Sequence record: SRR31156797_2251
Reading direction: 5' to 3' (one strand)
DNA: 39,041 nucleotides
Every line of letters starts with the position of its first letter. Within the stretch, counting starts at the first letter, position 1. The position numbers were made by a program, and so were the translations under genes. The notes beneath the pieces were generated by a model. The model did no database searches. It was given only the letters and a program-made list of their open reading frames with translations, and was not told where the DNA came from. This document shows, piece after piece, positions 2,356 through 39,041 of this stretch.

Positions 2356-2460
2356 TCATGGGACATGGGGACAAAAAAATCAAGAACGTCATCTCGGTTG
2401 TAAAGGATCGTCTTGAAAATGAAACGTTCGTAAAAATACTATTTCTATTGAAAGGAAAAT

Positions 2461-3432: not shown

Positions 3433-3491
3433 GAAAAAACCGAACAATGCATGGCGCCCCGGCAATAAATACCGGTTCAAGGAAAAAATCA

Positions 3492-3519
3492 TTGACAAAC
3501 ACCCCATTCATTTTATAGA
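3492..3519 (+). promoter_or_regulatory. Probable sigma70 promoter upstream of the attenuator
   Basis: TTGACA at 3492 followed by TATAGA after 16 bp. Confidence 0.45.
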
Positions 3520-3554
3520 AGTGTTTAAGAGTATCCGACAATGAGATTATACGC

Positions 3555-3623
3555 ATGATGTATCAAAAATTCACGGGCTTTTTTTATTTTATGTTCTGGG
3601 GAATACCTGTGCCCGTGGATTGA
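3555..3623 (+). CDS. Aromatic-amino-acid-rich leader peptide MMYQKFTGFFYFMFWGIPVPVD (22 aa)
   Basis: 5 Phe, 2 Tyr and 1 Trp in 22 codons, overlapping attenuator segments 1 and 2. Confidence 0.8.
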   Translation: MMYQKFTGFFYFMFWGIPVPVD

Positions 3624-3680
3624 TGGCGTTTTTGACAATTTTAAAGCCGTGGGCATTCAAAAGCCCACGGCTTTTTTTTT
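3568..3680 (+). promoter_or_regulatory. Ribosome-mediated transcription attenuator (1:2 pause stem, 2:3 antiterminator, 3:4 terminator)
   Basis: AATTCACGGGC (3568-78) pairs with GCCCGTGGATT (3611-21). GTGCCCGTGG (3609-18) pairs with CCGTGGGCAT (3647-56). AAAGCCGTGGGC/GCCCACGGCTTT plus T9 forms the terminator (3643-3680). Confidence 0.85.
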
Positions 3681-3747
3681 GCTTCTTTTCCAGCGACGGG
3701 GATTCGGAACCCATAGATTTAAAACATTATGATTGAAGGAAGAAAAA

Positions 3748-20671: not shown

Positions 20672-21391
20672 CTATCCGAAATAGGCCTCCTGGACCTCTT
20701 TGTTGTCGCGCAGGTATTGGGCGTCCCCTTCAGCCACTACCCCTCCCTTGGAGAGCACGTAGCCGTAATCCGAAATGGCGAGGGTCTGCCGCACGTTCTG
20801 TTCCACCAGAAAAACCGTGATGTTCTGTTGCCGGATGTCCTGAATGATGCGGAAGTTCTCCTTCACCAGCAGGGGCGACAGTCCCAGGGAGGGCTCATCG
20901 ATAATCAATAATTTGGGCGCCCCCATCAAACCCCGGCCGATGGAGACCATGGCCTGTTCACCGCCGCTCATGGTACCGGCCAGTTGGGAGACACGCTCCT
21001 TCAGACGGGGGAAAATCCGGTAGACTTTTTCCATGCGTGATAGCAGAACCTGCTTATCATCTTCCTGATACCCCCCCAGTAATAGGTTTTCTTCCACGGT
21101 AAGACCGGGAAAGACCTTGCGCCCTTCCGGGATGGAAGCGAGCCCCCGACGGATAATCTTGTGGGTGGGGAGGTGTGTGATATCGGCGCCCGCAAAAACA
21201 ATACGCCCGGTTCTGGGAGGGGTCAACCCCAGGATGGAACGGATGACGGTGGTCTTTCCCGAACCATTGTTCCCAAGGAGACAGGTAATGGTGCCTGTCA
21301 CCACTTCCAGGGAAAGGTTCTCCAGCACATCGGCCCGGTCATAGGCGGTGTAGATGCCCTGAACACTCAATGATGAAACCTTGTTTTCCAT
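20672..21391 (-). CDS. livF: Branched-chain amino acid-type ABC transporter ATPase
   Basis: GNNGSGKT, MSGGEQ, IIDEPSLGLSP, LVEQN. Confidence 0.93.
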   Translation of the reverse strand: MENKVSSLSVQGIYTAYDRADVLENLSLEVVTGTITCLLGNNGSGKTTVIRSILGLTPPRTGRIVFAGADITHLPTHKIIRRGLASIPEGRKVFPGLTVEENLLLGGYQEDDKQVLLSRMEKVYRIFPRLKERVSQLAGTMSGGEQAMVSIGRGLMGAPKLLIIDEPSLGLSPLLVKENFRIIQDIRQQNITVFLVEQNVRQTLAISDYGYVLSKGGVVAEGDAQYLRDNKEVQEAYFG

Positions 21392-22167
21392 CAGTCCACC
21401 CCCAGATAGGCCTGTTGGACCTCCCTGTCGGAGGCAATCTCCCGGTAGGTTCCCTCGCAGATTTTCTTGCCGAAATTGAGCACCGCACAGTAATCGGTAA
21501 TGCGCTCCATAACGGACATTTCGTGTTCAATGATGATGATGGTCAAATCCTCGATTTTTTCCTTGATGTGAAGGATATCATCAATGAGACGGAAGGTTTC
21601 CTCATGGGTCATGCCCGCTGACGGCTCATCCAGGAGCAGAAGTTTCGGATTGGAGATCAGTGCCCTGCAGATCTCGATGCGACGTCGGGAAATCATGGGG
21701 AGGTTGACCACGGGCTCGAAGAGTCTGTCCGCCAGATCAGGGTCGAAGATGGTAATGAGGTCCCGGCTTTTGTCCCGGATCTCCCGGTACTGGGCCGCCA
21801 GGGCCCCCCTTCTGAAAAGGTTGAAAAAGAGGCCGTTATTGAGCCTGCTGTGGTCCCCAAGGGTGATGTTGTCCATGATGCTCAGCGGCAGAAGAAGACG
21901 GGATCGTTGAAAGGTGCGTGCAACACCCGCCCGGTAAACTTTCTGGGGAGAAAAGTCGGTGATGTCCCCTCCCTCGAATGCCACCTTCCCGGATGTGGTG
22001 GGATAGATGCCGGTGACCACATTAAAAAAAGTGGTTTTGCCGCTACCGTTGGGCCCGATGAGGCCGAGAATCCGATTTCGCGCCACATCCAGGTCCAGAT
22101 CCGACAAAGCCGTTACGCCGCCAAATTTTTTTCCGAGTTTTGAGATACCGAGCAATACCTTCTGCAA
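21391..22167 (-). CDS. livG: Branched-chain amino acid-type ABC transporter ATPase
   Basis: GPNGSGKT, ARTFQ, LLLDEPSAG, IEHEM, VQQAYLG. Confidence 0.93.
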   Translation of the reverse strand: MQKVLLGISKLGKKFGGVTALSDLDLDVARNRILGLIGPNGSGKTTFFNVVTGIYPTTSGKVAFEGGDITDFSPQKVYRAGVARTFQRSRLLLPLSIMDNITLGDHSRLNNGLFFNLFRRGALAAQYREIRDKSRDLITIFDPDLADRLFEPVVNLPMISRRRIEICRALISNPKLLLLDEPSAGMTHEETFRLIDDILHIKEKIEDLTIIIIEHEMSVMERITDYCAVLNFGKKICEGTYREIASDREVQQAYLGVD

Positions 22168-22183
22168 TGTGAATCCTTACTTT

Positions 22184-23353
22184 TTAACGATTTTGAGATG
22201 ATTTCAACGTAATATAACTGCGCAGGGGACGCGGCAGCAGACCCTGGGGCCGGAACAGCAGGATGGCGATCACCAAGGCGGAAAACAACAGAAAGCGATA
22301 CTCCTGCAGGACCTGGAATTTTTCAGGAATCAGGATGACAATGACCGTTGCCACCACGGTCCCCCACATGGAACCCAAGCCCCCCAGAATCACAATGGAC
22401 AAAAGGATCAGTGAGTCTCCGAAAGTGAAGTTGGTCGGCGCAATGTACCCGAGCATCATGGCGTAAAAAGCACCCGCCACCCCGCAATAGAAATTTCCGA
22501 TGGTAAAGGCCGTAATCTTCCACCTTGGGATGGATTGTCCGAAACAGGCGCTCACCGTTTCATCCAGACGTACCGCGTCCATGTTGAGGCCTACCCAGGA
22601 ATCCTCCATGCGACGCGCCATAATAAAACCTGAAATGAGCAGCACCAGGATAACGGCGATATATCCCAGATAGAAGCACCCCTCAAGGGAACCGATCACA
22701 ATATCCCGGTTGAAATCCCAGCCGAACAGGTTTAATCCGGCGCTCTTCAACCCCTGGGGCCCGCCCAGGGTGTCGTTCACCTCCAGAAAGGTCTTGAACA
22801 GGAGGGCAAAGGCGATGGTCACCAGGGCCGCGTAGTGCCCCCGGGTCTTAAGCACCGGAATCAAAATAAGAAAGCCCAAAAGCGACGCCATCAAGCCGCC
22901 CAGAAAGAGGACCGCCAGATGCGGCACCATTGTATTTTTGGTGAGGACGGCCGCCGTGTAACACCCGACCCCGAAAAAAGCGGCGCCCGCGAAGTTCAAA
23001 ACGCCCACGAAACCGAATTGGATATTCAAACCCAGACAGGTGAGCACATAGACCAGGACCGTACCCACGAGAAAAAGCACAAAGGGATCATCGTAAAAAT
23101 ATAGGCTCACGGCCAAAACCCCGGCAACCACGGCCATGGCAAAAGCGCGCTGGTTATCCTTTGCGCTCTCCCCCACGGCATCCAGGACCCGCAAATATTT
23201 GAACGCGGTCACGACGAGTCCGGCCCCTAAAAGGAGCCCGAAAATCACCATCTGCGACTCGCCCGCCAGGAAAAATACCATGTAGACGACACCCGCCAAC
23301 ACCGCAAGGAGAGAAGGTAAAAAGGAAGTTCGTTTCCTTGATGACTCAGACAT
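22184..23353 (-). CDS. livM: Branched-chain amino acid-type ABC transporter permease
   Basis: GLNIQFG..G, RGHYAALVT.AF, VILGGLGS, RPQGL. Confidence 0.92.
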   Translation of the reverse strand: MSESSRKRTSFLPSLLAVLAGVVYMVFFLAGESQMVIFGLLLGAGLVVTAFKYLRVLDAVGESAKDNQRAFAMAVVAGVLAVSLYFYDDPFVLFLVGTVLVYVLTCLGLNIQFGFVGVLNFAGAAFFGVGCYTAAVLTKNTMVPHLAVLFLGGLMASLLGFLILIPVLKTRGHYAALVTIAFALLFKTFLEVNDTLGGPQGLKSAGLNLFGWDFNRDIVIGSLEGCFYLGYIAVILVLLISGFIMARRMEDSWVGLNMDAVRLDETVSACFGQSIPRWKITAFTIGNFYCGVAGAFYAMMLGYIAPTNFTFGDSLILLSIVILGGLGSMWGTVVATVIVILIPEKFQVLQEYRFLLFSALVIAILLFRPQGLLPRPLRSYITLKSSQNR

Positions 23354-23357
23354 TCGT

Positions 23358-24278
23358 TTAGACTCTTTCCGTTTCTTTTTCGCCCAGAAGGCCGGTGGGT
23401 TTGATGGCGATCAGGATGATGACCATGCCGAATGCAAAAACATCCTTGTATGCACTGGCGAAAGGCAATGCCGCGGCGCCGATGGTCTGTAGCAGGGCGA
23501 ACAGGAACCCCCCTACGATGGCGCCGTAAATGTTTCCAAAACCGCCGACGGCGGCGGCGGAAAAGCCGATGGCACCCAGGAGCAATCCCATATTAAAGCT
23601 TAATTCATTATAGTACAGGCCGTAGATCACGCCGGCAAAAGCCGCAAGGCCGCTCCCGATGGCAAAGGTGACATACACCACCATGTTGAAATTGATCCCC
23701 ATGATCCGGGCGGTTTCTTCGTCCTGACTCACGGCGCGGATGGCCATCCCCAACTTGCTGCGTTTGATGATGATCTGCACCAGCATGATCATTAAAATGC
23801 CGGCAATGAACATGGCGGCATTGTCAAACCGCAAGGTGAAATGTCCCCAGGAATGACTCCAGTCGGGCAGGAGCGCCGGGAAATGTTTGGGATTGGCGCC
23901 GTCGGGGTAGAACAGGCGGATGGACTCCCTGAGCACGGTCCCCAACATGAGGGTAATCAACAGGGTGTTGAGGGGCGGGGCCCCTTTTAAGGGTATGATC
24001 AAGACTTTGGCAATGACCGCTCCCAAAAAACCGATGGCCGCCATGGAAATCACGGCCACGATCACGAGAATGAACCAGGGGGAGGAAAAGCCAACAAGGG
24101 CAAGGCCTAGATAGGCTGAAAATGCCGTGAAAACGCCCCAGGTCAGCATATCGCCGTGGGAAAATTTGATGACGTCCAGCACACCGAAAAAGAGGGTGAA
24201 CCCCACCGCCACCAAAGAGTATATCAACCCCAGCATGAGTCCGTTTACAATATGCTGGGCTATGAGTCCAATGTCCAT
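23358..24278 (-). CDS. livH: Branched-chain amino acid-type ABC transporter permease
   Basis: NGL.LG.IY.LVAVGFTL.FG....FSHG, G.AIRAV.QD...A..MGIN, KPTGLLG. Confidence 0.93.
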   Translation of the reverse strand: MDIGLIAQHIVNGLMLGLIYSLVAVGFTLFFGVLDVIKFSHGDMLTWGVFTAFSAYLGLALVGFSSPWFILVIVAVISMAAIGFLGAVIAKVLIIPLKGAPPLNTLLITLMLGTVLRESIRLFYPDGANPKHFPALLPDWSHSWGHFTLRFDNAAMFIAGILMIMLVQIIIKRSKLGMAIRAVSQDEETARIMGINFNMVVYVTFAIGSGLAAFAGVIYGLYYNELSFNMGLLLGAIGFSAAAVGGFGNIYGAIVGGFLFALLQTIGAAALPFASAYKDVFAFGMVIILIAIKPTGLLGEKETERV

Positions 24279-24316
24279 GAGGGATTTGTCCGTATGTCAG
24301 GTGGAAAAACCGGCTA

Positions 24317-24345
24317 GGTGGAGCGGGTTGTTTTCCCGCTCCACC
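24317..24345. other. Intercistronic 11-bp hairpin after the binding-protein gene
   Basis: GGTGGAGCGGG-TTGTTTT-CCCGCTCCACC; typical position for an mRNA-stabilising or partial-termination stem. Confidence 0.65.
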
Positions 24346-24357
24346 CATGCGTTGGGG

Positions 24358-25518
24358 TTAGCGTCTTTTGAGCTTGCGCTTGCCGGTAGCATATTCGGAA
24401 TTCTGCCACGGCACCCATTTTCCGTCCTGGACCACATACTTGGTAATGGCCGGGGAAATGTTCTGACCGTGTTCGTCAAAGGTTACGGAACCCACGATGG
24501 CTTCATACCCCTGAATGTTTTCCATGCGCTTCACCACGGCTTTTCGGCTGGGGCCCACCTCTTCAATCACATCCAGAATCAGGTTCATGGCGGCAAAGGC
24601 GAAGGGGCCGAAGGCATCCGGCGCTTCCTTATAGCCTACCTTGTCGTATTCTTCCAGGAACCATTTCCCCCCCGGAAGATTTTCCACGGGCTCCCCTTCC
24701 CTGAAGGCGATGGTCCCTTCGGCAAGGTCACCCGTCCCCGTGATAAAGGCATCGGAAATGATACCCGAGCAACTCTGGAACTGACTGGTGAGGCCCAGTT
24801 TCTCCATCTGCAGCCGGATACGCACGCCCAGGGGCGTAAGCCCTCCGAACCAGATCACGTCGGGATTGAGTTTCTTGGCCTGGGTGAGTTCCGCGGTAAA
24901 ATCCTGCTGATCGGAGGTGACACCGAAACTGCCCAGTATTTTGCCGCCGTTCTGGGTGAGATATTTGGAGAAGTATTCGTTCATCCCCTTGCCGTAGTCG
25001 GTGGTGTCATAGAGATTCACCCAGGTCTTGTATCCCAGGCCCGTGATGAATTTCGCGGCGATATCGTTCTGATTGATCATGGTGCCGTTAATCCGGTGGA
25101 TCTCTTTGTATTTGTTTCCGTAGGTAATCCCCGGATGGACCGCGCCCCAGACCACAATGGGCAGGCCGAATTTGTGGTAAACATCCACGGAGGCCAGCGC
25201 CACCACGGAGCAATAATGTGCCGCGGCGGCGATGATCTTTTTGTTTGCGGCCGCCTTGGTGGCCACCTGCACACCCGAGTTGGGCTTACACTCATCATCG
25301 AGCACCACCAGTTCGTAATGGTATTTGGCCTTGGGGTCCGCGTTTCTCAGCTTCACCGCAAGATCCGCCGAGTTCCTTCCCCCGACGCCGATGGCGGAAA
25401 CACCCCCGGTAAGAGGCCCGATGAAGGCCACTTCAACGGTCTTCTTTGCCAGAACCGGGCCGGCTGTCATCACCAGAAGCAAACCGATCACAATACTTAT
25501 TAAGCTCCTCAATTTCAT
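24358..25518 (-). CDS. livK: Branched-chain amino acid-type ABC transporter substrate-binding protein
   Basis: Signal peptide, GPLTG...G, LDDECKP, HYCS, DYGKG, G.VTFDEHG; strong RBS. Confidence 0.92.
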   Translation of the reverse strand: MKLRSLISIVIGLLLVMTAGPVLAKKTVEVAFIGPLTGGVSAIGVGGRNSADLAVKLRNADPKAKYHYELVVLDDECKPNSGVQVATKAAANKKIIAAAAHYCSVVALASVDVYHKFGLPIVVWGAVHPGITYGNKYKEIHRINGTMINQNDIAAKFITGLGYKTWVNLYDTTDYGKGMNEYFSKYLTQNGGKILGSFGVTSDQQDFTAELTQAKKLNPDVIWFGGLTPLGVRIRLQMEKLGLTSQFQSCSGIISDAFITGTGDLAEGTIAFREGEPVENLPGGKWFLEEYDKVGYKEAPDAFGPFAFAAMNLILDVIEEVGPSRKAVVKRMENIQGYEAIVGSVTFDEHGQNISPAITKYVVQDGKWVPWQNSEYATGKRKLKRR

Positions 25519-27385: not shown

Positions 27386-28375
27386 TCAACAAGTCTTCCC
27401 CCTCACCTTCAAGCCCAGCTCCTTTAACAGTTCCAGGTCCTTCTGAAGGGTACGGCCATGGGTGGTGAGATAGTTACCGGTCATCATGCCATTGGCACCC
27501 GCCTGAAAAATGCGATCATGACGATCTCCCAAGCCGGCTTCCCTTCCGCCGCAAACCAGGATATTGGTATCCGGAAGGACATACCGGAAAAGCGAGATAA
27601 TTTTGAGGCACCGCAAGGGAGAGACCTTTGGGTAATGGGCCATGGGGGTCCCTTCAATGGGCACCAGGAAATTGATGGGAACGGCATCCACCTTCAAATC
27701 CTTCAGGGCCAACGCCAGTTCAAGCACCTGTTCATCGGTCTCCCCGATGCCGAAAATACCGCCCGAACACACACTCAACCCCGCCCGTTTCGCGTTCAAA
27801 ACGCAGTTCACCCGTTCCTCATAGGTGTGTGTACCGCACATATTTTGAAAATGACTCTTGGCGGTTTCCAGGTTGTGATGGTAGCGGCTCACCCCCGCTT
27901 TTTTCAGTACTTGAAAATCATCGGGAGCCAAAATACCCAGGGAGGCGCAGGTCTTGACCTTGTCCGGATCCAACGCACCGAGGGCTTGTGCAACGGCAGT
28001 CACTTCATGGGGCGGCAGACGCCGGCCGCTGGTGACCACGGCATATCGGTTAATGGGGGTTTGGGATGCATATTCGCCGCCCGCCATGAGCTTTTCTTTG
28101 TTCAGAAGGGGATAAACCCTGGCATTTGTCTTTGAAGATGCCGACTGGGAACAAAAAACGCAATCTTCGCTGCACTTCCCCGATTTCCCGTTACAAATGG
28201 TACACAGGTGAATCTCGGATGCGAAACGCGCTTTGCGGATCCGGTCCGCGCCCGCCATGAGCAAATGAACATCTTGCGCCGGCGTATCCACGATGATCCT
28301 GTAGGCCTCTGCCCCGAAAGGTTTCCCGCTAAGAATATTCTCCGTTAAAGTATTCAGTTCTTTTTTTCTATCCAT
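27386..28375 (-). CDS. bioB: Biotin synthase
   Basis: Radical SAM CSEDCVFCSQ, YHHNLET, CSGGIFG.GE, VPINFL, GNYLTT; ATG 28375 follows the bioD stop. Confidence 0.97.
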   Translation of the reverse strand: MDRKKELNTLTENILSGKPFGAEAYRIIVDTPAQDVHLLMAGADRIRKARFASEIHLCTICNGKSGKCSEDCVFCSQSASSKTNARVYPLLNKEKLMAGGEYASQTPINRYAVVTSGRRLPPHEVTAVAQALGALDPDKVKTCASLGILAPDDFQVLKKAGVSRYHHNLETAKSHFQNMCGTHTYEERVNCVLNAKRAGLSVCSGGIFGIGETDEQVLELALALKDLKVDAVPINFLVPIEGTPMAHYPKVSPLRCLKIISLFRYVLPDTNILVCGGREAGLGDRHDRIFQAGANGMMTGNYLTTHGRTLQKDLELLKELGLKVRGKTC

Positions 28376-28380
28376 GATTC

Positions 28381-29013
28381 TTATGACCCGAAACATCGGC
28401 GAAAAATGTTCCTTAAGGTCACCTTGTCGATGCGCTCCAATGGTTCGATTTCGGCACAGACCGCGGTGTTTCCATAACGTTCAATGGCCTTGCGGTTATC
28501 CGGGTTTCGAGGGCCGTTCATTACCACCCCCAAAACCTGCAGGGAATGGTTTTTCAGCAGATCCAATGACAGCAGGGTGTGGTTGATGGTACCGAGACCG
28601 CTTTCCGCAACCAGCAAGATCGGCAGTTGAAGTTTTTTCATGAGATCCAGCATCAGGTGATGATCGTTTAAGGGAACCATAATACCCCCCGCACCCTCCA
28701 CGATAAGATGCCCCCCGGAGGTTTGGGGAAGGTCCATTGATTGGAGATCGATGGAAATCCCGTCTTTTGCCGCCGCCACATGGGGCGACAGGGGAAACCG
28801 AAACCGGTAGCTTTCAGGATAAAAATGGCTCGGGGGCAGGCCGGTCATCTCCTGCACACACGCCGTATCGGTTTTTTCATGGAGACCGCTCTGAATGGGC
28901 TTCCAGTATCGGGCCGAAAGGCCGGCCACCAGAATGGCGCTCACAAAGGTTTTGCCCACGCCGGTGCCCGTGCCGGTGACAAATATCCCGGAAGGCAGGT
29001 CAACGGTTCCCAT
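28381..29013 (-). CDS. bioD: Dethiobiotin synthase
   Basis: FVTGTGTGVGKT, YWKPIQSG, VEGAGG, LGTINHTLLS. Confidence 0.97.
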   Translation of the reverse strand: MGTVDLPSGIFVTGTGTGVGKTFVSAILVAGLSARYWKPIQSGLHEKTDTACVQEMTGLPPSHFYPESYRFRFPLSPHVAAAKDGISIDLQSMDLPQTSGGHLIVEGAGGIMVPLNDHHLMLDLMKKLQLPILLVAESGLGTINHTLLSLDLLKNHSLQVLGVVMNGPRNPDNRKAIERYGNTAVCAEIEPLERIDKVTLRNIFRRCFGS

Positions 29014-30166
29014 GGGAATGCCCCTCCTTGAATAGTTGAATCAGGTATTCCAATTGTGCCATGGTATGCGGTACCGAAAGGGCCAGCCGGATTCTGGACT
29101 CCCCCTCGGGCACCGTGGGAGGGCGTATTGCAGTGGCCATAACCCCCCTGTTTTCAAGATGCCGGGAAAGGGCCAGGGCTTCCGTCTCCCCGCCCACCAA
29201 CACCGGAACAATCTGCGTATCGGAACTCCCGGTTCTCCACCCCAGTTTCCGCAGGTGCGCCCTCAAAAAATCAGCCTTGGCATGGAGTTCTTTGCGTTCT
29301 TTCTCCATGGCGGGGATGAGGTCGAGGGCCGCATCAATGGAACCGATGACCGACGGGGGCATGGCCGTTGTGTAAATAAATCCCGAACAGCAGTTCACGA
29401 GATAATCACGAAGCTTATGGGAGCACGCCGCATAGGCCCCGAAAGAGCCGCATGCCTTTCCGAAGGTGCCGATGGTTAAATCCACGCCCTTTCCGCAGCA
29501 AAGCCCCATGCCCCTTGTCCCCAGAACACCGGTGGCATGGGCCTCATCCACCACCAGCAACGCGTCAAAGGAACGGGCAAGCTCAACCAGGGATGCGATA
29601 TCGCTCCGGTCGCCATCCACACTGAACACCGATTCGGTCACAATGATACGCCGTGAAAACCGTTTGTTGGTATTTTCCCTGAGAAGCTCCTCCAGGTGGC
29701 CCACATCATTATGCCTGAACCGAAGCACATGGCAGCGGGAAAGCAATGCACCCTGAACGATGCTGCTGTGATTCAATCGGTCCGACAGGATCAGGGTCTG
29801 CCGGTCGGCCAATGCCGGCAGGATGGACACATTTGCCTGAAATCCCGAATTGAGAATCAGCGCGGCTTCCGTCCCTTTCAGCTCCGCCAGTTTTTCCTCC
29901 ACAGCCTCAAAACAGTCATAGGTGCCGCAAATCAATCGCGATGCCGTAGAGCCCGCTCCATAACGCTTGGTAAATTCAACGGCTCTTTGGATGAGCAGCG
30001 GATGTTTTGAAAGCCCCAGGTAATCATTGGAACAGAAATTCATGGCCTTTCGACCCCTGATGCGAACATCCACCCCTGTAAGGGGCGTGACCGACTGCAA
30101 CCGCCTCAGGTGCGATTGCCGCCTGCGACGGTCCAGTTCTTCCTCCATGAATCGATATTTGTTCAT
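29000..30166 (-). CDS. bioF: 8-amino-7-oxononanoate synthase
   Basis: [39 protein letters not shown]. Confidence 0.96.
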
Positions 30167-31488
30167 ATGGATGATTTCTTTTCCGGGTCTTCCAGTTGAA
30201 TCACCTCCACCATGGCCCGGGTGACGCGTGCCAGCTGGGATGAATCAATGATATAGGGCGGCATGGTATAGACCAGCTTTCCAAAGGGCCTGATCCAGAC
30301 CCCTTTTTCCACAAACCGTTTTTGCATGCGGGCCATATCCACCACATGTTTCAGCTCAACCACGCCGATGGCGCCTAAAGCGCGCACATGGGCAACCCAG
30401 GGCAATTTTTTAAGGGGCGTCAACGCGGCCCTAAGCTGGGCCTCGATCCGCATCACCCGCTCTTTCCAGGGAGAAGCCAGAAGGAGCCTGACGCTGGCCG
30501 CCGCCACGGCGCAGGCAAGGGGGTTGGCCATGAAGGTGGGGCCGTGCATGAACATGCCGGGCTCACCTTTCGAAATGCCGTCGCTCATGTCACGGGTGGT
30601 CAGAGTAGCCGCCAGGCTCATGTATCCCCCGGTGAGCGCCTTTCCCACACACATGATATCCGGTGAAATGCCCGCCTTTTCACAGGCGAACATGTGGCCT
30701 GTGCGCCCGAAGCCGGTTGCGATTTCATCCAGGATAAGGAGCACGTCAAACTCACGGGAAAGCTCCCGAACCCGCCGCAGGTAATGGGGAGAATAGAACC
30801 GCATCCCCCCGGCCCCTTGAACCACCGGTTCCAGGATAATGGCCGCGATTTCTCCGTGGTGCCGTTCAAGAATGGTTTTGAAGCTCTCCATATCCCTTTC
30901 ATCCCACGGTTCGTCATAGCCGCACCCGGGGGCGTCTGCAAAATAATGTTTTGCAAGAATGCCTTCAAAAATCGTGTGCATGCCGGTCACCGGATCACAC
31001 ACGGCCATGGCACCGAAGGTATCGCCATGGTACCCCGACCGTACGGTCAAAAGCCGGTGTTTGTCAGGCCGGCCTCTTGCCTGCCAGTATTGAACCGCCA
31101 TTTTAATGGCCACTTCAACGGAAACGGAACCGGAATCGCTGAAGAAGACATTTTGGAGCGGTTCAGGGGTCAGGTCCACCAAAAGGGTAGCCAACCGAAC
31201 GGCGGGCGCATGGGTCAACCCCCCGAACATGACATGGGCCATTTTTTCCAACTGAGTACGTGCCGCCTCGTTGAGTACCGGGTGATTATACCCATGGATG
31301 GCGGCCCACCAGGAGCTCATACCGTCAATGAGTCGCCTGCCGTCTTCCAAAATGAGATGCACGCCCTTGGCCGCGGCAACCGGATACACGGGAAGCGGGT
31401 CCCTCATGGAGGTGTAGGGATGCCAGATGTGAGTCCGATCAAATGCGGATAAATCATGATTCCCGGAGTTTTCCATAATTCTCTTCAT
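30163..31488 (-). CDS. bioA: Adenosylmethionine-8-amino-7-oxononanoate transaminase
   Basis: [59 protein letters not shown]. Confidence 0.97.
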
Positions 31489-31826: not shown

Positions 31827-32912
31827 ATGGAACTACTGGACGCTTGCCATGATTCTCCACTTTTCCTGAAAAATCTGATGGCTTGTTTTCAAGAGGCCAT
31901 TCTCGTCACGGATGGGGAAGGGAACATCTTTATGGCCAATGAAGCCGTTGAGACAGTCCTCGGTTATACCCCCCGTGAGCTTACCAATAAAAATCTTTCA
32001 ATTTTCTTTACCCCTGAAGATCTGGTCTACTTCTACCCCAATTTGCTACGACTGAGCCAAAGAGGCGAACCGTTTCAGGGGGAAGTCTTATTGGTAACAA
32101 AAAGCAACGCCCGGCTTTTTGCTTTCGCTATTGTTAGATCATTTAATGATACCACCCTGAATAAATTATTCAATTTTATTTGTATCAGAAACATTCACAC
32201 CCAAAAACAGCTTGAAAAAGCCTCGGCCGAAACCAATTATGAAGACTTGGTAAAAGTGGCCAACGGGGTGGCCCATGAACTCAGAAATCCATTGGTGGGC
32301 ATAGGCGGTTTTGTTAATAGGCTATATGAAAAATGCAACGCCGTCCATGAACACGCGGAGTATTATGATCGTATCATTAGTAATATCAAAAAGATAGAAG
32401 TCATCATCAAAAAAGTTGAATTTATGGCGAAACTGCCCAAGCCCTCTTTCACCATGGAGAATATGAGAGCCGTAATCGAAAACGCCATTCAGCCATATCT
32501 TCCAATTCTGGAAAAACGAAAAATCGACTTAACGCTTCAAATAGACCGGACCGTTCTGAAGCTCGACAGGGAACTTATCATCAGGGTTTTTTCTATTTTA
32601 ATTGAAAACGCCATGGACGCACTCCCTGATGGTGGAAACATCAGTGTCCGGAACCTACCGCATGAAAATCAATGTGAAATTGAATTTTCCGACACGGGAC
32701 CGGGCATTTCAACCGAGGATCTGCCCTTTATTTTCAACCCATTTTTCAGCACCAAAGCAGATGGCGCGGGAATAGACCTTGCGGTTGTCAAACGGATCAT
32801 GGAAAGTCACGGAGGCGGTATCAACGCCCGTTCGGAAGAGGGTCGGGGTGCCAGTTTTACCTTGGGGTTTCCACTTGAACGCCGCCGCGCCATACGGATT
32901 TCCCCCATTTAA
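31827..32912 (+). CDS. Cytoplasmic PAS-domain sensor histidine kinase
   Basis: PAS (AN.A...LGY...EL), H-box VAHELRNPL, ENAMDA, DTGPGI, FNPFFSTK. Confidence 0.93.
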   Translation: MELLDACHDSPLFLKNLMACFQEAILVTDGEGNIFMANEAVETVLGYTPRELTNKNLSIFFTPEDLVYFYPNLLRLSQRGEPFQGEVLLVTKSNARLFAFAIVRSFNDTTLNKLFNFICIRNIHTQKQLEKASAETNYEDLVKVANGVAHELRNPLVGIGGFVNRLYEKCNAVHEHAEYYDRIISNIKKIEVIIKKVEFMAKLPKPSFTMENMRAVIENAIQPYLPILEKRKIDLTLQIDRTVLKLDRELIIRVFSILIENAMDALPDGGNISVRNLPHENQCEIEFSDTGPGISTEDLPFIFNPFFSTKADGAGIDLAVVKRIMESHGGGINARSEEGRGASFTLGFPLERRRAIRISPI

Positions 32913-34015
32913 AAATAAAGCGTATCGCCATGATTGATATCCAGCAACCTGTCCGTCATGTTTGCCTTCCGAAGTTCGCGCCTTACATCTTCGGGCGGCA
33001 CATGCACCGGTTCGTCTCCCAGCCGGAAGGTCCCCCAGTGAACGATAAACATTTTTTCCGCATGCAGATCTTTCATGGCCCGGACCGCTTCGGCCGGGTT
33101 CATGTGGCTTTGCTTCATGAACCAGCGCGGTTCATAGGCCCCCACGCTTAGAATGGCCAGGTCGATGTCGTATTGTTCACCGATCTCCCTGAACCCTTGA
33201 AAATAGGCGGTATCGCCGCTGAGAAAGATGGTGGGGCCTGATGCGGTACGGATCAGATAGCTTCCCCACAGGTTGCGATTGGGACCAATGATGGGATTGC
33301 GCATGGTCCAGTGGTTACAGGGCAGCAGTATACTCTGACGCTTTCCGTCGTCAAAAACATCAAACCAGTCCAGCTGGGTACGGTTTTTCATACCGATGGA
33401 TGAAAAGACCGAATCATAGCCCAAAGGTGTCACCACATGGGTGTTCGGATCAAAAACAGAGAGGGTATCCTTATCCAGATGGTCATAATGGCCGTGGGTG
33501 ATCAACACATGGTCCGGCTTCGGCATGGTATCGATATCAAACTCAAGGGGCGTGAAATTGGTGAACGTGGGAAACAGACCGAAAAACACCGGGTCCACCA
33601 GAATCGACACCCCCGCGTCCCGGATCAGCACCGATGCATGGTTGATGAAGGTGACGGAAAGGCCGTCATAACTGATGATGGGCGCCCAATCTATCTTTAC
33701 GGGGTTCAGGGGTTCATCCGCATACCGCTCCCTGAAATGGTTTTCCGAAAAGAGTTTCCATTTTAAAAAATCCGAAAAGTCTTTTTTACCCGAAGGAGCG
33801 AAAGGATTGATGAAACGGTCCTTTCCGTGGTGCCGTTTTTGCCGGGCTATTTGTCTCAGAGTCATCTTCTTGTTTGTGGGCACAGGATCCTCCTGCGGCG
33901 CTTCTGCGTGGGAACAGCCCACAAAGGGTACCATACTCAAAAAGGCCAGGTCCAGGCCCCATCTCGTTGCCGCAATCATGAACTCCCTTCTCGTTTTCGG
34001 TTTCAATGGGGTCAT
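32909..34015 (-). CDS. Exported MBL-fold hydrolase (NAPE-PLD/RomA-like) with Tat motif and possible lipobox
   Basis: KTRREFM twin-arginine, FVGC lipobox, THGHYDHLD, HW..R, GDTAY, GAYEPRWFM...HMNP, HWGTF. Confidence 0.9.
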   Translation of the reverse strand: MTPLKPKTRREFMIAATRWGLDLAFLSMVPFVGCSHAEAPQEDPVPTNKKMTLRQIARQKRHHGKDRFINPFAPSGKKDFSDFLKWKLFSENHFRERYADEPLNPVKIDWAPIISYDGLSVTFINHASVLIRDAGVSILVDPVFFGLFPTFTNFTPLEFDIDTMPKPDHVLITHGHYDHLDKDTLSVFDPNTHVVTPLGYDSVFSSIGMKNRTQLDWFDVFDDGKRQSILLPCNHWTMRNPIIGPNRNLWGSYLIRTASGPTIFLSGDTAYFQGFREIGEQYDIDLAILSVGAYEPRWFMKQSHMNPAEAVRAMKDLHAEKMFIVHWGTFRLGDEPVHVPPEDVRRELRKANMTDRLLDINHGDTLYF

Positions 34016-34060
34016 CAGGTTGAAAAACCTTTCCCTTCCTTCCCGCACCCTGGGAATCGT

Positions 34061-34171
34061 GGGACGTCCATAAAATTATAATTTTCCCATGCTAAACAAA
34101 AAGCGGAAGGCTCATAAACTTGATAAATGTTAAAGGGAAAGTTTTTAATTTTATGATTCTATGGACGTCCC
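34061..34171. mobile_element. 111-bp miniature element with imperfect terminal inverted repeats (MITE/REP-like)
   Basis: Left GGGACGTCCATAAAATTATAA; right end reverse complement GGGACGTCCATAGAATCATAA; AT-rich non-coding interior. Confidence 0.65.
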
Positions 34172-34198
34172 TCTCTCCCCCCCGTCCCTCTCTCCCCC
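34166..34198 (+). repeat. Tandem duplication of CGTCCCTCTCTCCCCC spanning the element's right end
   Basis: Copies at 34166-34181 and 34183-34198. Confidence 0.8.
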
Positions 34199-34223
34199 AC
34201 GTGCTGAAAGTACGGAATGTGAG

Positions 34224-34718
34224 TTAGGGGTTGTGTGACTTATTTTCAAGAATGATTTTTAAATTCTCACCTTCTTCACGCATATGTTTTTTTACACTCG
34301 ACAAAGCCTTTTCAATTGATCTTTTAAATAAGATCTTACCAATTTTCCCGATACGATAAGTACCTTTCGCAATGAACTGGCAAGAGTCGCCTTTCGGCTC
34401 AATTATAAATTCATTCTTTGGGAAAAATTTTCTTATAAAACGAGAGGTTGGTGCATATTCAATCCTTTGATTTCTTTCAACCTCTGTAATTTTAAATTTT
34501 AATTTATGCAGCTTTCCGTGAATATATTCTTCTGCATATAGAATCGACTCTTTTTCCCACGGATTTCCTTTGAGCCATCGAAAACTAACGTGATCATCCT
34601 TATGCCACGCTCTATAGCTATTATCGTCAACAATACCAGTCAGGAAATTGAAAATATCCTCAGGTCGTGCTTTTATTTCAATAGAGTCTTGAAGCACTGC
34701 TTCTTCAAAAAAGGTCAT
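34224..34718 (-). CDS. SRPBCC/START-like protein carried on an integron-like gene cassette
   Basis: DSIEIKARPEDIFNFL..Y..WH N-terminus and amphipathic C-terminal helix; AT-rich; flanked by complementary core sites. Confidence 0.65.
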   Translation of the reverse strand: MTFFEEAVLQDSIEIKARPEDIFNFLTGIVDDNSYRAWHKDDHVSFRWLKGNPWEKESILYAEEYIHGKLHKLKFKITEVERNQRIEYAPTSRFIRKFFPKNEFIIEPKGDSCQFIAKGTYRIGKIGKILFKRSIEKALSSVKKHMREEGENLKIILENKSHNP

Positions 34719-34726
34719 TTTCTCCC

Positions 34727-34756
34727 TCACACAACGGTGGAATTCAGGGGCCGCCG
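34727..34756 (-). mobile_element. Right arm of an attC-like recombination site
   Basis: Minus strand CGGCGGCCCCTGAATTCCACC-GTTGTGTGA directly before the RBS and ATG. The complementary TCACACAAC lies at the 3' end of the same gene (34230-34238). Confidence 0.6.
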
Positions 34757-34806
34757 ACCGCAGAAGGTAGAAAGGGGACGTTATTAAATTGTAAAATAAC
34801 TTTATT

Positions 34807-37269
34807 TCAATTTGTAGATATTTGATTATTTAAGGATGTCCCCATGTCCTCCCTGCTAGTTGTGCTGTTTTTGGATATTCCATCGATGGTGGATCTTACA
34901 GCCTGAGCGATCGCTTCCAAAGAGTATGGTTTTCTGAGATACACCCCGGCGCCCAAATCCAGAGCTGCTTTCACTCGACTTGTCTCGGAAAAACCACTGG
35001 CGATGGTGGTTTTCTGCCCCGGCCGGATTTCAAGAGCCTTTTGGTAGGTTTCCAGGCCGTCCATTCCGGCAGGCATGACCATGTCCAACAACAGCACATC
35101 CACCTTCCGCTCTCGCAATACCGCCAGGGCTTGTTCGCCACTGGCCGCGGATTCCACAAGGTAGCCGAGTCGTTTCAGCATGTCAGTGGCGATCTCGCGC
35201 TGTTCGAGTATGTCATCCACCACCAGTACGGACTCTCCTCTCCCTCCGATGGATTCGATGTCCACTCTGGGGCTCACCATTGCCGCCGAATCCCTGCACA
35301 GAGGAAAGTAGAGCTGGAAGGTCGTGCCTTTCCCTTCGCTGCTTTCAACATCGATGTAGCCATGGTGATCTTTGACGGTTCCCCAAACCACCGCCATACC
35401 CAGCCCAGTACCACTTCTGCCCATTTGTTTCCGGGTAAAGAAAGGCTCGAAAATCCTTTCCAGAACTTCGGGTGACATCCCGACGCCGTTGTCGGACACC
35501 GTCAATCTCGCATATTCCCCCTCGTTCACATCGTCATAACCGCGCAGAGGGGTGTCTATATAGATATCCTCAGACGTAACGATGATTTTTCCATTGCCCG
35601 AAATAGCTTCTGCCGCATTGATAATCAAATTCATAAACGTCTTCGACAAATGAACAGATGATCCCTTGATGACACCGAAACGGCTGTTCAATTGCGCGTC
35701 CACCTCCAAGCCCGCATGGTCCTCGCTGATTCTTGCGAATTCCGGGCTGTCGAGAAACTCGGTCACCACGTCGTTCAAACGCACAATCTGGAAGTCCATA
35801 ACATTCCGTCTGGCTAAGGTAAGGAGATCCTGCACAATGGCCGCCGCTTTTTCCCCGGATGTCTTTATGGTGGTGATTGCCTTACGGAGCGGATCGTCTT
35901 GAGCCAGATCCATCAGGATCAGATCCGGATAGGTCACGATCCCAGACAGGATGTTGTTCAGATCGTGGGCGACACCGCCGGCAAGCGTTCCGATGGCCTC
36001 CATTTTTTCGGCTCTGTTCAGTTTGGCTTCAAGATCTCCACGCGCTCTCTCGGATTCGGTGTGATCCTCGATTTCCTTACGCAATTGACGGTTGATTTCG
36101 ATCAGTTCCGAAGTCTTTTCCCGAACCTTTATTTCAAGATACTCACGGGCCTCATCCAACTCTCGAAATTGATTGTCTATTGTTGTTGCCATCGTATTTA
36201 AGGCATTTTGAACGATCTGAAATTCACTTGAAACGTCAGGTCGGACATCTATTCGGTAGGACAAATCCTCCTGGATCCGTTTCGTTTCTTCCACGGTTTC
36301 CAGGATCTGCCGGATGATGGATCGGCCGCAGTAAAGGACGAAGCCGGCCAACAACAGGCTGGCCAGAAAAATCAACAATTGCAGCCGCTCGCTGTCGGTT
36401 ATGATTTCCCTGTTGGATGCGACGATGGTCTCACTGGCCTTCCGAAAGGCTTGAGCCATCCGGGATCGATTATCGGTTAACCGATTCATGGATTGTCTTT
36501 TCCTGTCTTGGAATTCCAGCAGTCTTGCGAAAGATTCCTCAAGGGTTCTCCCCGTCATCAACAATTCTTCGACGAGCAGGCCGTCTTGGGCATCCAGAGA
36601 ATAATCTTCGAAATTATTCACCGAATCGTAGAATTTCTTCACATTTCGCATAAAAGCGGCCTTCTGGGCCTTCCCTTCCCGGTTTTGCTGCAACACATAG
36701 AAGTGGGTCAAAAGATCCAGCAAACTCGTTTGGATGGCGGTGGCGGCGCTGACAATATCCAGTTCCGACGCCGATTTGACGGGGCTTCGCTGAAAATTCT
36801 TGCCGGTATCATAATCTTGAATTGCAGCGCTCCGAGCCATCAGGTTTTTCAAGTAGGCGATATGGTGTTCATGAATGTAGCGAACACTCGCAGCCAGTTG
36901 TGGAAGTACCTTGTAGGCGTTGCGATGCAACATCAGGCATTCATTCTCGGCGGCAAGCAATTGCTCGAAAATCCGTCTTCTCTCCATCTGCAGATCTTCG
37001 TCGATGACCGAGTTCAGTGTGGTGCTCAATTGGGCCAACTGATCATATTTCTTTTGAAGCCGAGGATATTGGGATGGGTCGGCCACAGTTGTATCTTCCA
37101 GATGTACCAACTCGGACAGGAAGTTTTGCAGCATCAGGATGGAATGGTAGCGGGTATCAGCGCGGTCGGCAATCCTTCCGAGATAGGCGTTCACACCCAG
37201 GAGCATGGCCAAAGCAACGATGAACAGAGTGGTCAACCTGATTTTGGCTTTTATAGATTTGGGAAGCAT
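34807..37269 (-). CDS. Membrane-bound hybrid sensor histidine kinase/response regulator
   Basis: TM1, about 270-aa extracytoplasmic domain, TM2, HAMP-like linker, AHDLNN H-box, INAAEA, DNGVG, GTGLG, C-terminal receiver (VVDD, LLD, KP). Confidence 0.95.
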   Translation of the reverse strand: MLPKSIKAKIRLTTLFIVALAMLLGVNAYLGRIADRADTRYHSILMLQNFLSELVHLEDTTVADPSQYPRLQKKYDQLAQLSTTLNSVIDEDLQMERRRIFEQLLAAENECLMLHRNAYKVLPQLAASVRYIHEHHIAYLKNLMARSAAIQDYDTGKNFQRSPVKSASELDIVSAATAIQTSLLDLLTHFYVLQQNREGKAQKAAFMRNVKKFYDSVNNFEDYSLDAQDGLLVEELLMTGRTLEESFARLLEFQDRKRQSMNRLTDNRSRMAQAFRKASETIVASNREIITDSERLQLLIFLASLLLAGFVLYCGRSIIRQILETVEETKRIQEDLSYRIDVRPDVSSEFQIVQNALNTMATTIDNQFRELDEAREYLEIKVREKTSELIEINRQLRKEIEDHTESERARGDLEAKLNRAEKMEAIGTLAGGVAHDLNNILSGIVTYPDLILMDLAQDDPLRKAITTIKTSGEKAAAIVQDLLTLARRNVMDFQIVRLNDVVTEFLDSPEFARISEDHAGLEVDAQLNSRFGVIKGSSVHLSKTFMNLIINAAEAISGNGKIIVTSEDIYIDTPLRGYDDVNEGEYARLTVSDNGVGMSPEVLERIFEPFFTRKQMGRSGTGLGMAVVWGTVKDHHGYIDVESSEGKGTTFQLYFPLCRDSAAMVSPRVDIESIGGRGESVLVVDDILEQREIATDMLKRLGYLVESAASGEQALAVLRERKVDVLLLDMVMPAGMDGLETYQKALEIRPGQKTTIASGFSETSRVKAALDLGAGVYLRKPYSLEAIAQAVRSTIDGISKNSTTSREDMGTSLNNQISTN

Positions 37270-37282
37270 GATCCCGGGATCT

Positions 37283-38092
37283 CTAGTTTCCGGGCTCCAA
37301 AGGATAACCCAGTTTGATCCAGCGTCGCATCCCGAAGCGAAGACCCTTTACGTTGGTGTAATGGTGGAGATGCAAGTATCTCATGACCAACGCGTCCCGA
37401 TTCCCGGTCTCAGTGACAGTGATAACCTGTCCCGTTCTTGGAATGGCTTGCCTCACCTCCGGTTTGCGTAGATCATCAAACAGAATCCGCAAGGTTGGGC
37501 AGCTGGTTTTAATCGATGGTACGGCCTTATCTGTTGAAAGAAAATACTCAGTTCGCAGGTCCAGAATGGTTAAAAAACAATTTCCTTTGTCATCCCGGCA
37601 CTCCATTTCTTCCGTTTCTTTGATTGCTTGAAGCAGTTCTTCGGATGAAATGAACGGGGTCTCGCATTCAGGAAGATTTTCAATTACATCCAGTGCATGT
37701 CCGGCTTTTTTCCAATCCTTGATGCCGCCATTGTAGATTTTGATATTCCGAAAACCAAGATATTTTACGGCAACTGCCGCTTTGTAGGCGAAAACTCACC
37801 TGTACCCCATTCAGTAAGTGACGATCAATCTGTCCTTGTCTTGGCCCAGCCGGCCCTGCAACTCCTTGATCCTGCTCCAGGGAACATTAACGGATCCGGG
37901 GATAGAAGCATTACGGTAGATCATTTCATCGAGGCTGTTCAGCAGCAGAAAATCGATTTTTCCCGCATCTCTGTCTTCCAGCATCTGAACCAGTTGTTGA
38001 GTGGTGACAATATCGAATCGTTCCAAAGCGTAGGCAGGAAAGGACCACGCCAGCACGATGAACAACCCAATTCGGATCAATTTCCTCATCAT
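37283..38092 (-). CDS. Secreted tandem-rhodanese protein with two in-frame UGA codons (predicted double selenoprotein, about 269 aa)
   Basis: AGGAGGT RBS; signal peptide ending AYA; IPGSVNVPW...LIVTY-TGA-MGYR-TGA-VFAYKAA...LGFRNIKIYNGGIKDW. The frame runs on without stops into the 37606-37283 ORF (second rhodanese fold, GLRFGMRRW..LGYP). Confidence 0.85.
37767..37801 (-). promoter_or_regulatory. Two adjacent SECIS-like hairpins
   Basis: AGGTGA-GTTT-TCGCCT (loop begins 15 nt after the first TGA) and GCGGC-AGTT-GCCGT (loop begins 20 nt after the second TGA); both loops contain G. Confidence 0.55.
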
Positions 38093-38142
38093 GACCTCCT
38101 GATTTCTAAAAGAATACCCTATCAACTCAGTATAGTTCATGT

Positions 38143-38170
38143 ACAATAGAGTTTTTTTTGAGATTGTCAA
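38143..38170 (-). promoter_or_regulatory. Possible sigma70 promoter for the rhodanese-kinase unit
   Basis: TTGACA-16 bp-TATTGT. Confidence 0.4.
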
Positions 38171-38351
38171 ACACATAAATATCCATGACCGTCATCATAA
38201 TGTAATGGGGGACCTTATTGGATTATAAGATCTATTTCCGTTGGGCGCGTTCTCGAGGTCTCGGGCGGTTATCACTCTCAATATGTGAAAAAATCGAATA
38301 ATCCAATGGTCGGCCCTTTCCCCACACAATGGGCATCTTCCGTCAAAAGGC

Positions 38352-39041
38352 TCACAAGAGATTTTCAAAAAAATCGTTACCCTTGTCATCTACCAGGATA
38401 AATGCGGGGAAATCCTTGACCGTGATCTCATAGACGGCTTCCATGCCCAGTTCCGGATATTCAAGCACTTTCACCTGGGTGATGCACTCTTTCCCGAGAC
38501 GCGCCGCGGGACCGCCGATGGATCCCAGATAGAATCCGCCATAGGCTTTGCATGCATCGGTCACCTGCCGGGAACGGTTCCCTTTGGCCAGCATCACCAT
38601 GGATCCGCCCCGTTTCTGGAAAACGGGAACATAGGGATCCATGCGGGCGGCCGTTGTGGGGCCGAAAGAGCCGGACGCATATCCTTCGGGCGTTTTGGCC
38701 GGCCCCGCATAGTAAATGATGTGGTCTTTCATATACCGCGGTAAATCTTCACCGGCATCCAGGCGCTCCTTGAGCTTGGCATGGGCCATATCCCGGCCCA
38801 CCACAATTTTTCCGGTGAGCAACAGGGGCGTGGCCACGGGGTATTTTGTCAGGATTGCCCGAATCTCATCCATGGGCCGGTTCAGATCAATCCGCACGGC
38901 ATCTTCAAAGGCGCTGTCAAGGGAGGGCAGATATTTGGCGGGCTCGGCTTCAAGCTGCTCCAGGAAAATCCCATCCCGGTTGATTTTCCCTTTGACATTG
39001 CGGTCCGCACTGCAACTGACGCCCATTCCGATGGGGCAGGA
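38352..39041 (-). CDS. Class I (Fe-S) fumarate hydratase, 3' part; start lies beyond the window
   Basis: [69 protein letters not shown]. Confidence 0.95.

Follow-up and report, generated by a model that had tools for sequence, protein, structure and literature searches.

The subject of this article is a conserved two-gene cassette in a stretch of DNA of 39,041 nucleotides from sequence record SRR31156797_2251, the whole of which we call the window. The first gene (38092-37283) encodes a rhodanese with two in-frame TGA codons and the second (37269-34807) a membrane-bound sensor kinase. Both lie on the minus strand and together they fill the interval 34807-38092, the TAG stop of the rhodanese gene (37285-37283) standing just ahead of the ATG of the kinase gene (37269-37267). 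The initial annotation of this DNA had placed the two genes here, on the same strand and 13 bp apart, with neither a terminator nor a promoter between them. The sequence and a consensus scan of 34000-38500 bear this out: no promoter-like site separates the genes, and there are no terminator-like sites at all in the scanned region, where shuffled sequences averaged 4.7. The sole strong promoter-like site, at 38170-38143, precedes the rhodanese gene, although the scan counted four promoter-like sites in the region against 5.9 expected by chance. Two ATG codons follow the ribosome-binding site, the second of which (38089) is better spaced from AGGAGG than the first (38092). The coordinates of these and other features are collected in Table 1.

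A rhodanese with two in-frame TGA codons

Gene callers do not see the first gene as one gene but split it into open reading frames (ORFs) at 38176-37811 and 37606-37283. Read through both TGA codons, it becomes a protein that matches the Pfam model Rhodanese (PF00581) at 57.9 bits, against a gathering cut-off of 22.2, over residues 31-130. Its active-site loop is then V-T-Y-U-M-G-Y-R-U-V-F-A-Y-K, where U denotes selenocysteine (Sec). A loop of six residues is a mark of sulfurtransferases. An AlphaFold2 model (predicted local distance difference test score, pLDDT, 88) has two rhodanese-fold halves, the second of which can be identified by fold only, and its best Foldseek matches are the tandem rhodaneses 6mxv, 1yt8 and 1rhd (bovine rhodanese). 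The N terminus, MMRKLIRIGLFIVLAWSFPAYA/LERF, resembles a cleavable signal peptide when the sequence is read by eye, much as the initial annotation had supposed, and homologues carry similar hydrophobic leaders ahead of a conserved ALERF. We infer that the rhodanese is exported to the periplasm; both it and the sensor domain of the kinase are predicted to lie outside the cytoplasm.

The second half of the rhodanese has its own loop, T-E-T-G-N-R-D, at the position where a catalytic loop would be. Its E, T, G and R are invariant in 30/30 aligned sequences, and its N and D nearly so. The first residue of the loop is T or S, and this half also contains nearly invariant cysteines, C165 and C198. They are absent only from the divergent locus L021. 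Such conservation exceeds what a purely structural domain needs; the loop may be a binding site, and C165 and C198 may form a disulfide.

The family has remained invisible to annotation because gene calls either split the gene or write tryptophan (W) at the TGA codons. Among its database entries (P0002-P0059) are C-terminal fragments of 152-189 residues that start just past the second TGA, along with full-length entries bearing W at one or both TGA positions (P0002, P0003, P0004 and P0006); one member, P0008, comes from Desulfosarcina alkanivorans. The window rhodanese passes no NCBIfam model, rhodanese_LYCAU (NF041203) giving 34.8 bits against a cut-off of 115. Nor did we find fusions of the rhodanese to the sensor or to DsbD among 1429 longer-protein candidates at E <= 1e-3, which is weak evidence.

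What do the TGA codons mean? We aligned the 60 bases that run from the first TGA in 39 distinct segments, the window included, drawn from reference genomes and metagenomes. The first position is TGA in 25/39 segments and TGC or TGT in the remaining 14/39, with no other codon seen; the second is TGA in 39/39. Judged by its codons, the first position is a classic case of Sec/Cys alternation. It flips four times or more on a quick tree built from that part of the sensor protein which lies in the periplasm, and the close sisters L002 (Cys) and L017 (Sec) differ there, which indicates a recent Sec/Cys exchange. (The kinase of L017 is seemingly split into ORFs 1330-2310 and 2360-3760, suggesting a frameshift or an assembly error.) In BH2092, a rhodanese of solved structure to which we return below, both positions align with Cys; in the database homologue P0005 the second aligns with Ser. 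Ordinary rhodaneses have Ser or Thr at the loop position that corresponds to the second TGA.

The available portions of a 2026 review of selenoproteins give criteria for a bacterial Sec insertion sequence (SECIS): a stem of 4-16 pairs, a loop of 3-9 bases with G in its first two positions, and 16-37 bases from UGA to loop (PMC13188914). Two small hairpins follow the codons, one past each Sec codon, in tandem at 37766-37813 (-) in the window and at the corresponding place in L001-L053. The second is the candidate SECIS. Its loop, AGUU or GGUC across the family, lies 20 bases past the second TGA and 35 past the first, so that stem, loop and both distances fall within the quoted bounds. It is paired in 95.3% of alignment cells, four of its six pairs have changed on both sides, and its covariation score was reached by 0/500 shuffles, all slid controls scoring lower. 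These compensatory changes alter the protein, from KT-AVA-V to KM-AVA-I; that is, Thr(ACG)...Val(GUx) is exchanged for Met(AUG)...Ile(AUC). Since the coupled amino-acid changes keep the hairpin paired, the structure of the RNA constrains the sequence of the protein.

The first hairpin is a different matter. It is paired in 82.9% of cells, shows a compensatory change in none of its pairs, and has its loop 15 bases past the first UGA, one short of the quoted range. Its fate follows the first codon: all six pairs are intact in 19/25 segments with TGA at that position versus 2/14 with Cys (Mann-Whitney p = 4e-5, ignoring relatedness). Both hairpins stand out by comparison only, the 101 bases around the TGA codons showing no unusual fold stability (z = -0.13). 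Rfam gave no match in 34000-39041 at E <= 1. SelB is above its curated cut-off in 5/5 tested genomes with homologous cassettes.

By these signs the two TGA codons are genuine coding positions, very probably for Sec. The other ways of looking at them are that the rhodanese is a pseudogene interrupted by stops or that TGA here encodes Trp or Gly. Taken together with the further thought that the two genes adjoin merely by chance, we give these next to no credence. It is true that gene callers split or mistranslate the rhodanese. Nonetheless, 39 distinct sequences retain the two codon positions, flanked on either side by conserved protein; Cys is the only alternative at the first, and the hairpin changes are compensatory. 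TGA, moreover, works as a stop in these genomes: the gene for fumarase in the window ends with it, as do those for the rhodaneses of L001, L002, L003 and L010, and this excludes an alternative genetic code. We rejected TGA as Trp or Gly on account of those stops and the Cys codons at position 1.

A sensor domain and its companion

From its positively charged N terminus the kinase runs through a membrane helix, some 265 residues, a second membrane helix, a HAMP-like region, and HisKA, HATPase_c and REC domains. It is a hybrid histidine kinase, and its phospho-acceptor H435 (in AHDLNN) is nearly invariant in the alignment. Hydrophobic segments at about residues 12-30 and 297-319 flank the sensor domain, in which two motifs are conserved. 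Y131, H136 and N142 are invariant in motif 1, where I132, H133 and H135 are at least 90% conserved; L225, D226, Q228, D229, G230 and E234 are invariant in motif 2. The domain is a rare one, with 81 representatives at E <= 1e-3 among 1.84 billion proteins.

On the evidence of its predicted structure, the sensor domain is TorS-like by fold. The AlphaFold2 model is all-helical (pLDDT 86), and the first six PDB hits from Foldseek are all structures of the TorS sensor (3o1h, 3o1i, 3o1j, 3i9y and 3i9w), three of the six being complexes with TorT; PilJ and McpS rank next. An independent feature search of the ESM Atlas put the TorS_sensor_domain cluster first, at 0.96. The NCBIfam TorS models fall far short against the window kinase (135.5 against a cut-off of 676.5, and 67.2 against 982), the weak alignment covering kinase residues 63-806.

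The linkage of the two genes was counted from both ends. A scan of reference genomes from the rhodanese side gave 22 loci, one of which (L022) was set aside as a non-member: its identity is 35% over 74 residues, the loop motif is absent and nothing there matches the sensor. At 21/21 of the rest a homologue of the sensor domain is encoded directly downstream on the same strand, at spacings that run from a 4-base overlap up to 46 bases. The record titles of these loci name Desulfosarcina, Desulfobacteraceae, Desulfobulbia, Desulfocapsaceae, Geopsychrobacteraceae, Fundidesulfovibrio and one Acidobacteriota bin; the cultured carriers are Desulfosarcina alkanivorans PL12 and Fundidesulfovibrio agrisoli SG106. 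From the sensor side, metagenome contigs gave 25 loci, 23 of them assessable (two were ended by the contig), and the rhodanese is directly upstream in 22/23. Two of these 22, L051 and L052, have identical figures and are possibly one sequence. The sensor domain also occurs in 5/401 sampled genomes of the phylum of reference locus L001. In three of these the rhodanese lies upstream; one of the three is the genome of L001 itself, and the other two may overlap the first set. In a fourth the contig begins 162 bases before the sensor gene. The fifth (L027/L028) has a sensor-like gene without its central part and no rhodanese in the 1.5 kb upstream; this gene matches domain positions 1-123 and 233-330 only, and conserved motif 1 is missing from it.

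The rhodanese-sensor pair is a conserved cassette, and we draw from it the strong conclusion that rhodanese and sensor are functionally coupled. The chance adjacency raised above is opposed by the linkage of 21/21 and 22/23. It had been foreseen that the idea of a joint system would fail if homologues of the two genes were unlinked elsewhere; we looked for just that, and the idea survives. The system had also been described as one of three parts, and here the claim went too far. An all-against-all comparison of ORFs, the pair itself and one antisense shadow ORF excepted, revealed no third conserved gene, be it a target, a regulator or an Hpt; the neighbour family that is shared most widely is present in 4/22 loci. 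With no other recurrent neighbour, the conserved unit is two genes, not three.

The cytoplasmic half of the sensor protein is another story. Among 22 sensor proteins the output domains are HisKA plus HATPase in 18, REC in 17, Hpt in two, PAS in two, and GGDEF plus EAL in two. Besides hybrid kinases of the same kind as the window's, the variants comprise hybrid kinases with Hpt (L005, L018) or PAS (L008), a kinase without a receiver (L019) and GGDEF-EAL proteins (L011, L015). Identity to the window protein is 22-60% in the kinase core and 25-45% in the sensor domain. A quick sensor-domain tree calls for five or more changes of output class, two of which are forced by well-supported branches. 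Because the pairing is kept while the cytoplasmic output varies, the linkage follows the periplasmic sensor domain: the rhodanese travels with that domain irrespective of output.

The window neighbours are housekeeping genes for biotin synthesis, a Liv-type ATP-binding cassette (ABC) transporter, fumarase, a metallo-beta-lactamase (MBL)-fold hydrolase and an SRPBCC protein. The biotin cluster (27386-31488, minus strand) has bioA-like class-III and bioF-like class-I/II aminotransferases, a bioD-like AAA_26 protein and a bioB-like radical S-adenosylmethionine (SAM)/BATS protein, and after it comes the Liv-type transporter (20672-25518). A second kinase gene, for a soluble PAS histidine kinase (31827-32912, plus strand), converges on that of the MBL-fold hydrolase (32909-34048, minus strand) with a 4-base overlap of their ends. 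We saw no response regulator or Hpt gene adjoining either kinase in the annotated part of the window.

Table 1. Features of the rhodanese-kinase locus, in window coordinates (all on the minus strand)
Feature	Coordinates	Strand	Residues	Remarks
Rhodanese gene	37283..38092	-	269 + TAG stop	secreted tandem-rhodanese selenoprotein (export predicted); one frame with two TGA
Predicted signal peptide	38027..38092	-	1-22	cleavage after AYA; from sequence reading
TGA codon 1	37811..37813	-	U94	canonical catalytic Cys position of rhodanese
TGA codon 2	37796..37798	-	U99	sixth and final residue of active-site loop
Hairpin 1	37786..37801	-		AGGUGA-GUUU-UCGCCU; begins 9 bases past TGA1; TGA2 inside stem
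Hairpin 2 (candidate SECIS)	37766..37781	-		6-pair stem, loop AGUU
T-E-T-G-N-R-D loop, second rhodanese half	37394..37414	-		at catalytic position, without Cys
Spacer, rhodanese stop to kinase start	37270..37282	-		13 bases
Kinase gene	34807..37269	-	820	hybrid sensor histidine kinase
Periplasmic sensor domain	36382..37179	-	31-296	all-helical, between two membrane helices; TorS-like fold (model)
Sensor motif 1	36841..36888	-	128-143	SVRYIHEHHIAYLKNL
Sensor motif 2	36559..36612	-	220-237	FEDYSLDAQDGLLVEELL
HAMP-like linker	36178..36324	-	316-364	21.2 bits, under cut-off of 25
HisKA	35806..35991	-	427-488	33.9 bits, above cut-off
HATPase_c	35299..35658	-	538-657	77.5 bits, above cut-off
REC, C-terminal	34894..35229	-	681-792	73 bits, above cut-off
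Ribosome-binding site AGGAGG	38095..38100	-		2 bases 5' of ATG 38092, 5 bases 5' of ATG 38089
Promoter-like site	38143..38170	-		TTGACA-16-TATTGT, 5' of rhodanese gene; 10/12 consensus matches; consensus only

How the rhodanese might speak to the sensor

Starting from the analogy with TorT and TorS and from linkage at the level of the domain, we propose that rhodanese and sensor are one periplasmic input module in which the rhodanese would be the reactive receptor and act upon the sensor. We regard this as evenly poised between right and wrong. The secreted rhodanese would bring to the task a loop whose catalytic position holds Sec or Cys and which, five residues on, has an invariant Sec. The loop could take up sulfane sulfur from polysulfide or thiosulfate, possibly holding it between the two chalcogens; alternatively, it could act as a switch, reduced in one state and a selenenylsulfide or diselenide in the other. 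Loaded or oxidised, the rhodanese would dock on the TorS-like helical bundle, or alter its grip on it, and the change would pass through the membrane and the HAMP region to kinase activity in the window protein, or to the turnover of cyclic di-GMP (c-di-GMP) in the GGDEF-EAL variants. Co-transcription of the two genes, physical contact of the two proteins and the identity of the signal are all matters that we infer. Sulfane sulfur, polysulfide or thiosulfate is the most likely putative signal, followed by periplasmic oxidants or redox potential; selenium or another metalloid species is less likely. A Sec-dependent input in full, in which the selenenylsulfide or diselenide loop would be a fast, reversible chalcogen switch for polysulfide, sulfane sulfur or redox potential, and in which the rhodanese would dock on the TorS-like sensor according to its state and so drive a phosphorelay or c-di-GMP turnover, is a tentative picture that we lean slightly against.

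The initial annotation had likewise seen the selenoprotein as an accessory receptor for the kinase. Linkage, output swaps and the TorS-like fold fit that idea, which loses the three parts and also the role given to a lone cysteine. The sensor domain of the window kinase does have exactly one Cys, C111, in ENECL, as was pointed out. None of 21 aligned sensor homologues has Cys in that column (0/21), so it is not a relay site for the family, and we rejected it in that role.

Several observations weigh against our proposal, and we set them out together. No Pfam model matches residues 31-296 at E <= 0.01, not even TorS_sensor_domain (PF21689), which is why we call the domain TorS-like by fold and not a member of that family. 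The Foldseek matches to TorS are modest (E 5e-4 to 5e-3; template-modelling scores, TM, 0.42-0.62), values that are usual for long helical bundles. The metagenome contig L042 (1-5658) has a full sensor, but the 3 kb upstream of it contain no rhodanese; housekeeping ORFs, gltX-like and xseA-like, occupy the place. The counts describe a narrow family, as scans with conserved peptide patterns find fairly close relatives only. With no Cys conserved in the sensor, a relay of thiol or selenol chemistry onto it is unlikely. Finally, the invariant His, Asp and Glu residues of the sensor could themselves make up a site for a ligand or a metal, with no need of a partner. A predicted complex of sensor residues 31-296 with a non-cognate rhodanese, P0002 (W at the second TGA), gave an interface score, ipSAE, of 0.00 in both runs, a null return that speaks neither for nor against contact.

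The last of these objections leads to a different account of the pair. The sensor might bind a small molecule or a metal directly, and the rhodanese be a co-expressed periplasmic enzyme that makes, consumes or detoxifies the compound (polysulfide, thiosulfate, cyanide or a selenium species are candidates for conversion), the two proteins being coupled in function but never touching. The motifs SVRYIHEHH and EDYSLDAQDG, invariant or nearly so, look closer to a binding site than to a generic scaffold. McpS and PilJ, helical bundles among the Foldseek matches, bind small ligands directly, going by the title of PMC6381276, and the conserved operon structure alone fits this account equally well. 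A pathway enzyme would, however, be expected to keep company with the regulated genes or with an output regulator, and no pathway gene is conserved nearby; the rhodanese instead stays with the sensor domain across two output swaps at the least, and probably more. TorS, to which the sensor is structurally nearest, works through a partner protein. We consider this account unlikely, though it is the main rival to our own.

There is also the possibility that the rhodanese looks after the sensor instead of informing it, as a maintenance or maturation factor that delivers or removes sulfur or selenium or shields against oxidation, or that it is itself the main, autoregulated product of the system. 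Rhodaneses commonly carry sulfur to other proteins, and a rhodanese gene that comes first behind a strong AGGAGG would yield more rhodanese than kinase. Yet the sensor lacks a conserved Cys to accept sulfur or selenium, and autoregulation leaves the pairing with GGDEF-EAL proteins unexplained, such outputs having no direct control of transcription. Maintenance or autoregulation strikes us as quite improbable.

Should our proposal of a reactive receptor be true, it would have consequences beyond this locus. A regulatory role would join a list of bacterial selenoproteins that is mostly catalytic. There would be a way to learn how polysulfide or periplasmic redox state is sensed by sulfate reducers, by sulfur disproportionators and by reducers of sulfur or iron. 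Were the input Sec-dependent in full, selenium supply would gate environmental sensing in sulfur-cycling anaerobes.

Relatives and precedents

Selenoprotein rhodaneses have been catalogued since the 2000s. Our search of the literature, outside which lay most subscription journals and supplements, turned up no publication in which a rhodanese selenoprotein is tied to a sensor kinase; this rhodanese family could figure in supplementary tables of selenoproteome surveys. The 2026 review describes, in the portions at hand, five forms of selenoprotein rhodanese, none with the architecture seen in the window, and the term 'histidine kinase' has 0 occurrences there (PMC13188914).

One of its entries is a relative of sorts. 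TsoB (NF045694), a rhodanese/DsbD fusion-like selenoprotein, has two selenocysteines in a UxxxxU motif and, as far as those portions of the review go, is the only catalogued selenoprotein with such a loop, fused in its case to a DsbD-like membrane part (PMC13188914). It is the best NCBIfam match of the window rhodanese, and the UxxxxU loop is the sole feature that the two share. The TsoB model fails on the window protein, with 48.3 bits against a cut-off of 805 and positions 43-159 of 572 matched. The window rhodanese, unlike TsoB, has no DsbD-like part; it has instead a second, Cys-less half and a partner sensor, and we saw no neighbouring Tso selenoprotein genes at the window locus.

The closest solved structure by sequence is BH2092 of Bacillus halodurans (3o3w, 3nhv; E 2e-9), a protein of unknown function. 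It has a single domain, which matches the first half of the window rhodanese with a root-mean-square deviation of 1.9 A over 111 columns. In sequence, U-M-G-Y-R-U of the window falls opposite its loop, C-W-G-P-A-C, which has Cys at both positions, and the loops of BH2092 and TsoB alike fit a redox-active pair. Another known system is Sud of Wolinella succinogenes, an anaerobe that respires sulfur. Sud is a periplasmic rhodanese-type polysulfide-sulfur transferase that binds polysulfide sulfur; it works with Cys, supplies a respiratory reductase and is not known to be linked to a sensor.

For the sensor the precedent is TorT-TorS, which responds to trimethylamine N-oxide (TMAO) in E. coli and Vibrio parahaemolyticus (3o1h, 3o1i, 3i9w). 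TorS takes its signal from TorT, a separate periplasmic protein, as related in the available portions of a review of co-sensors (PMC8050422). Like the window kinase, TorS is a hybrid kinase with a long helical-bundle periplasmic domain, and its sensor ranks first among both the structural and the ESM feature matches of the window sensor domain, although the two share 11-15% identity in structural alignments. The difference lies in the partner: in the window the proposed partner is a tandem rhodanese selenoprotein and not a solute-binding protein.

TorT does not stand alone. LuxP-LuxQ, ChvE-VirA and NspS-MbaA are co-sensor systems whose kinase or GGDEF-EAL membrane protein answers to an accessory protein in the periplasm (PMC8050422, available portions), and these two kinds of output mirror the output types of the rhodanese-linked sensor family. 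Within the same portions of that review, every accessory periplasmic partner is a solute-binding protein, neither 'rhodanese' nor 'selenocysteine' occurs even once, and all the partners listed are non-covalent binders of solute-binding protein folds, unlike a rhodanese. A covalently reactive selenoprotein in the role of partner would, if true, be a different sensing chemistry. Sensors that depend on an accessory protein are thus known; by analogy with them, what would be new is an accessory protein that is a rhodanese with two selenocysteines, in putative contact with its sensor.

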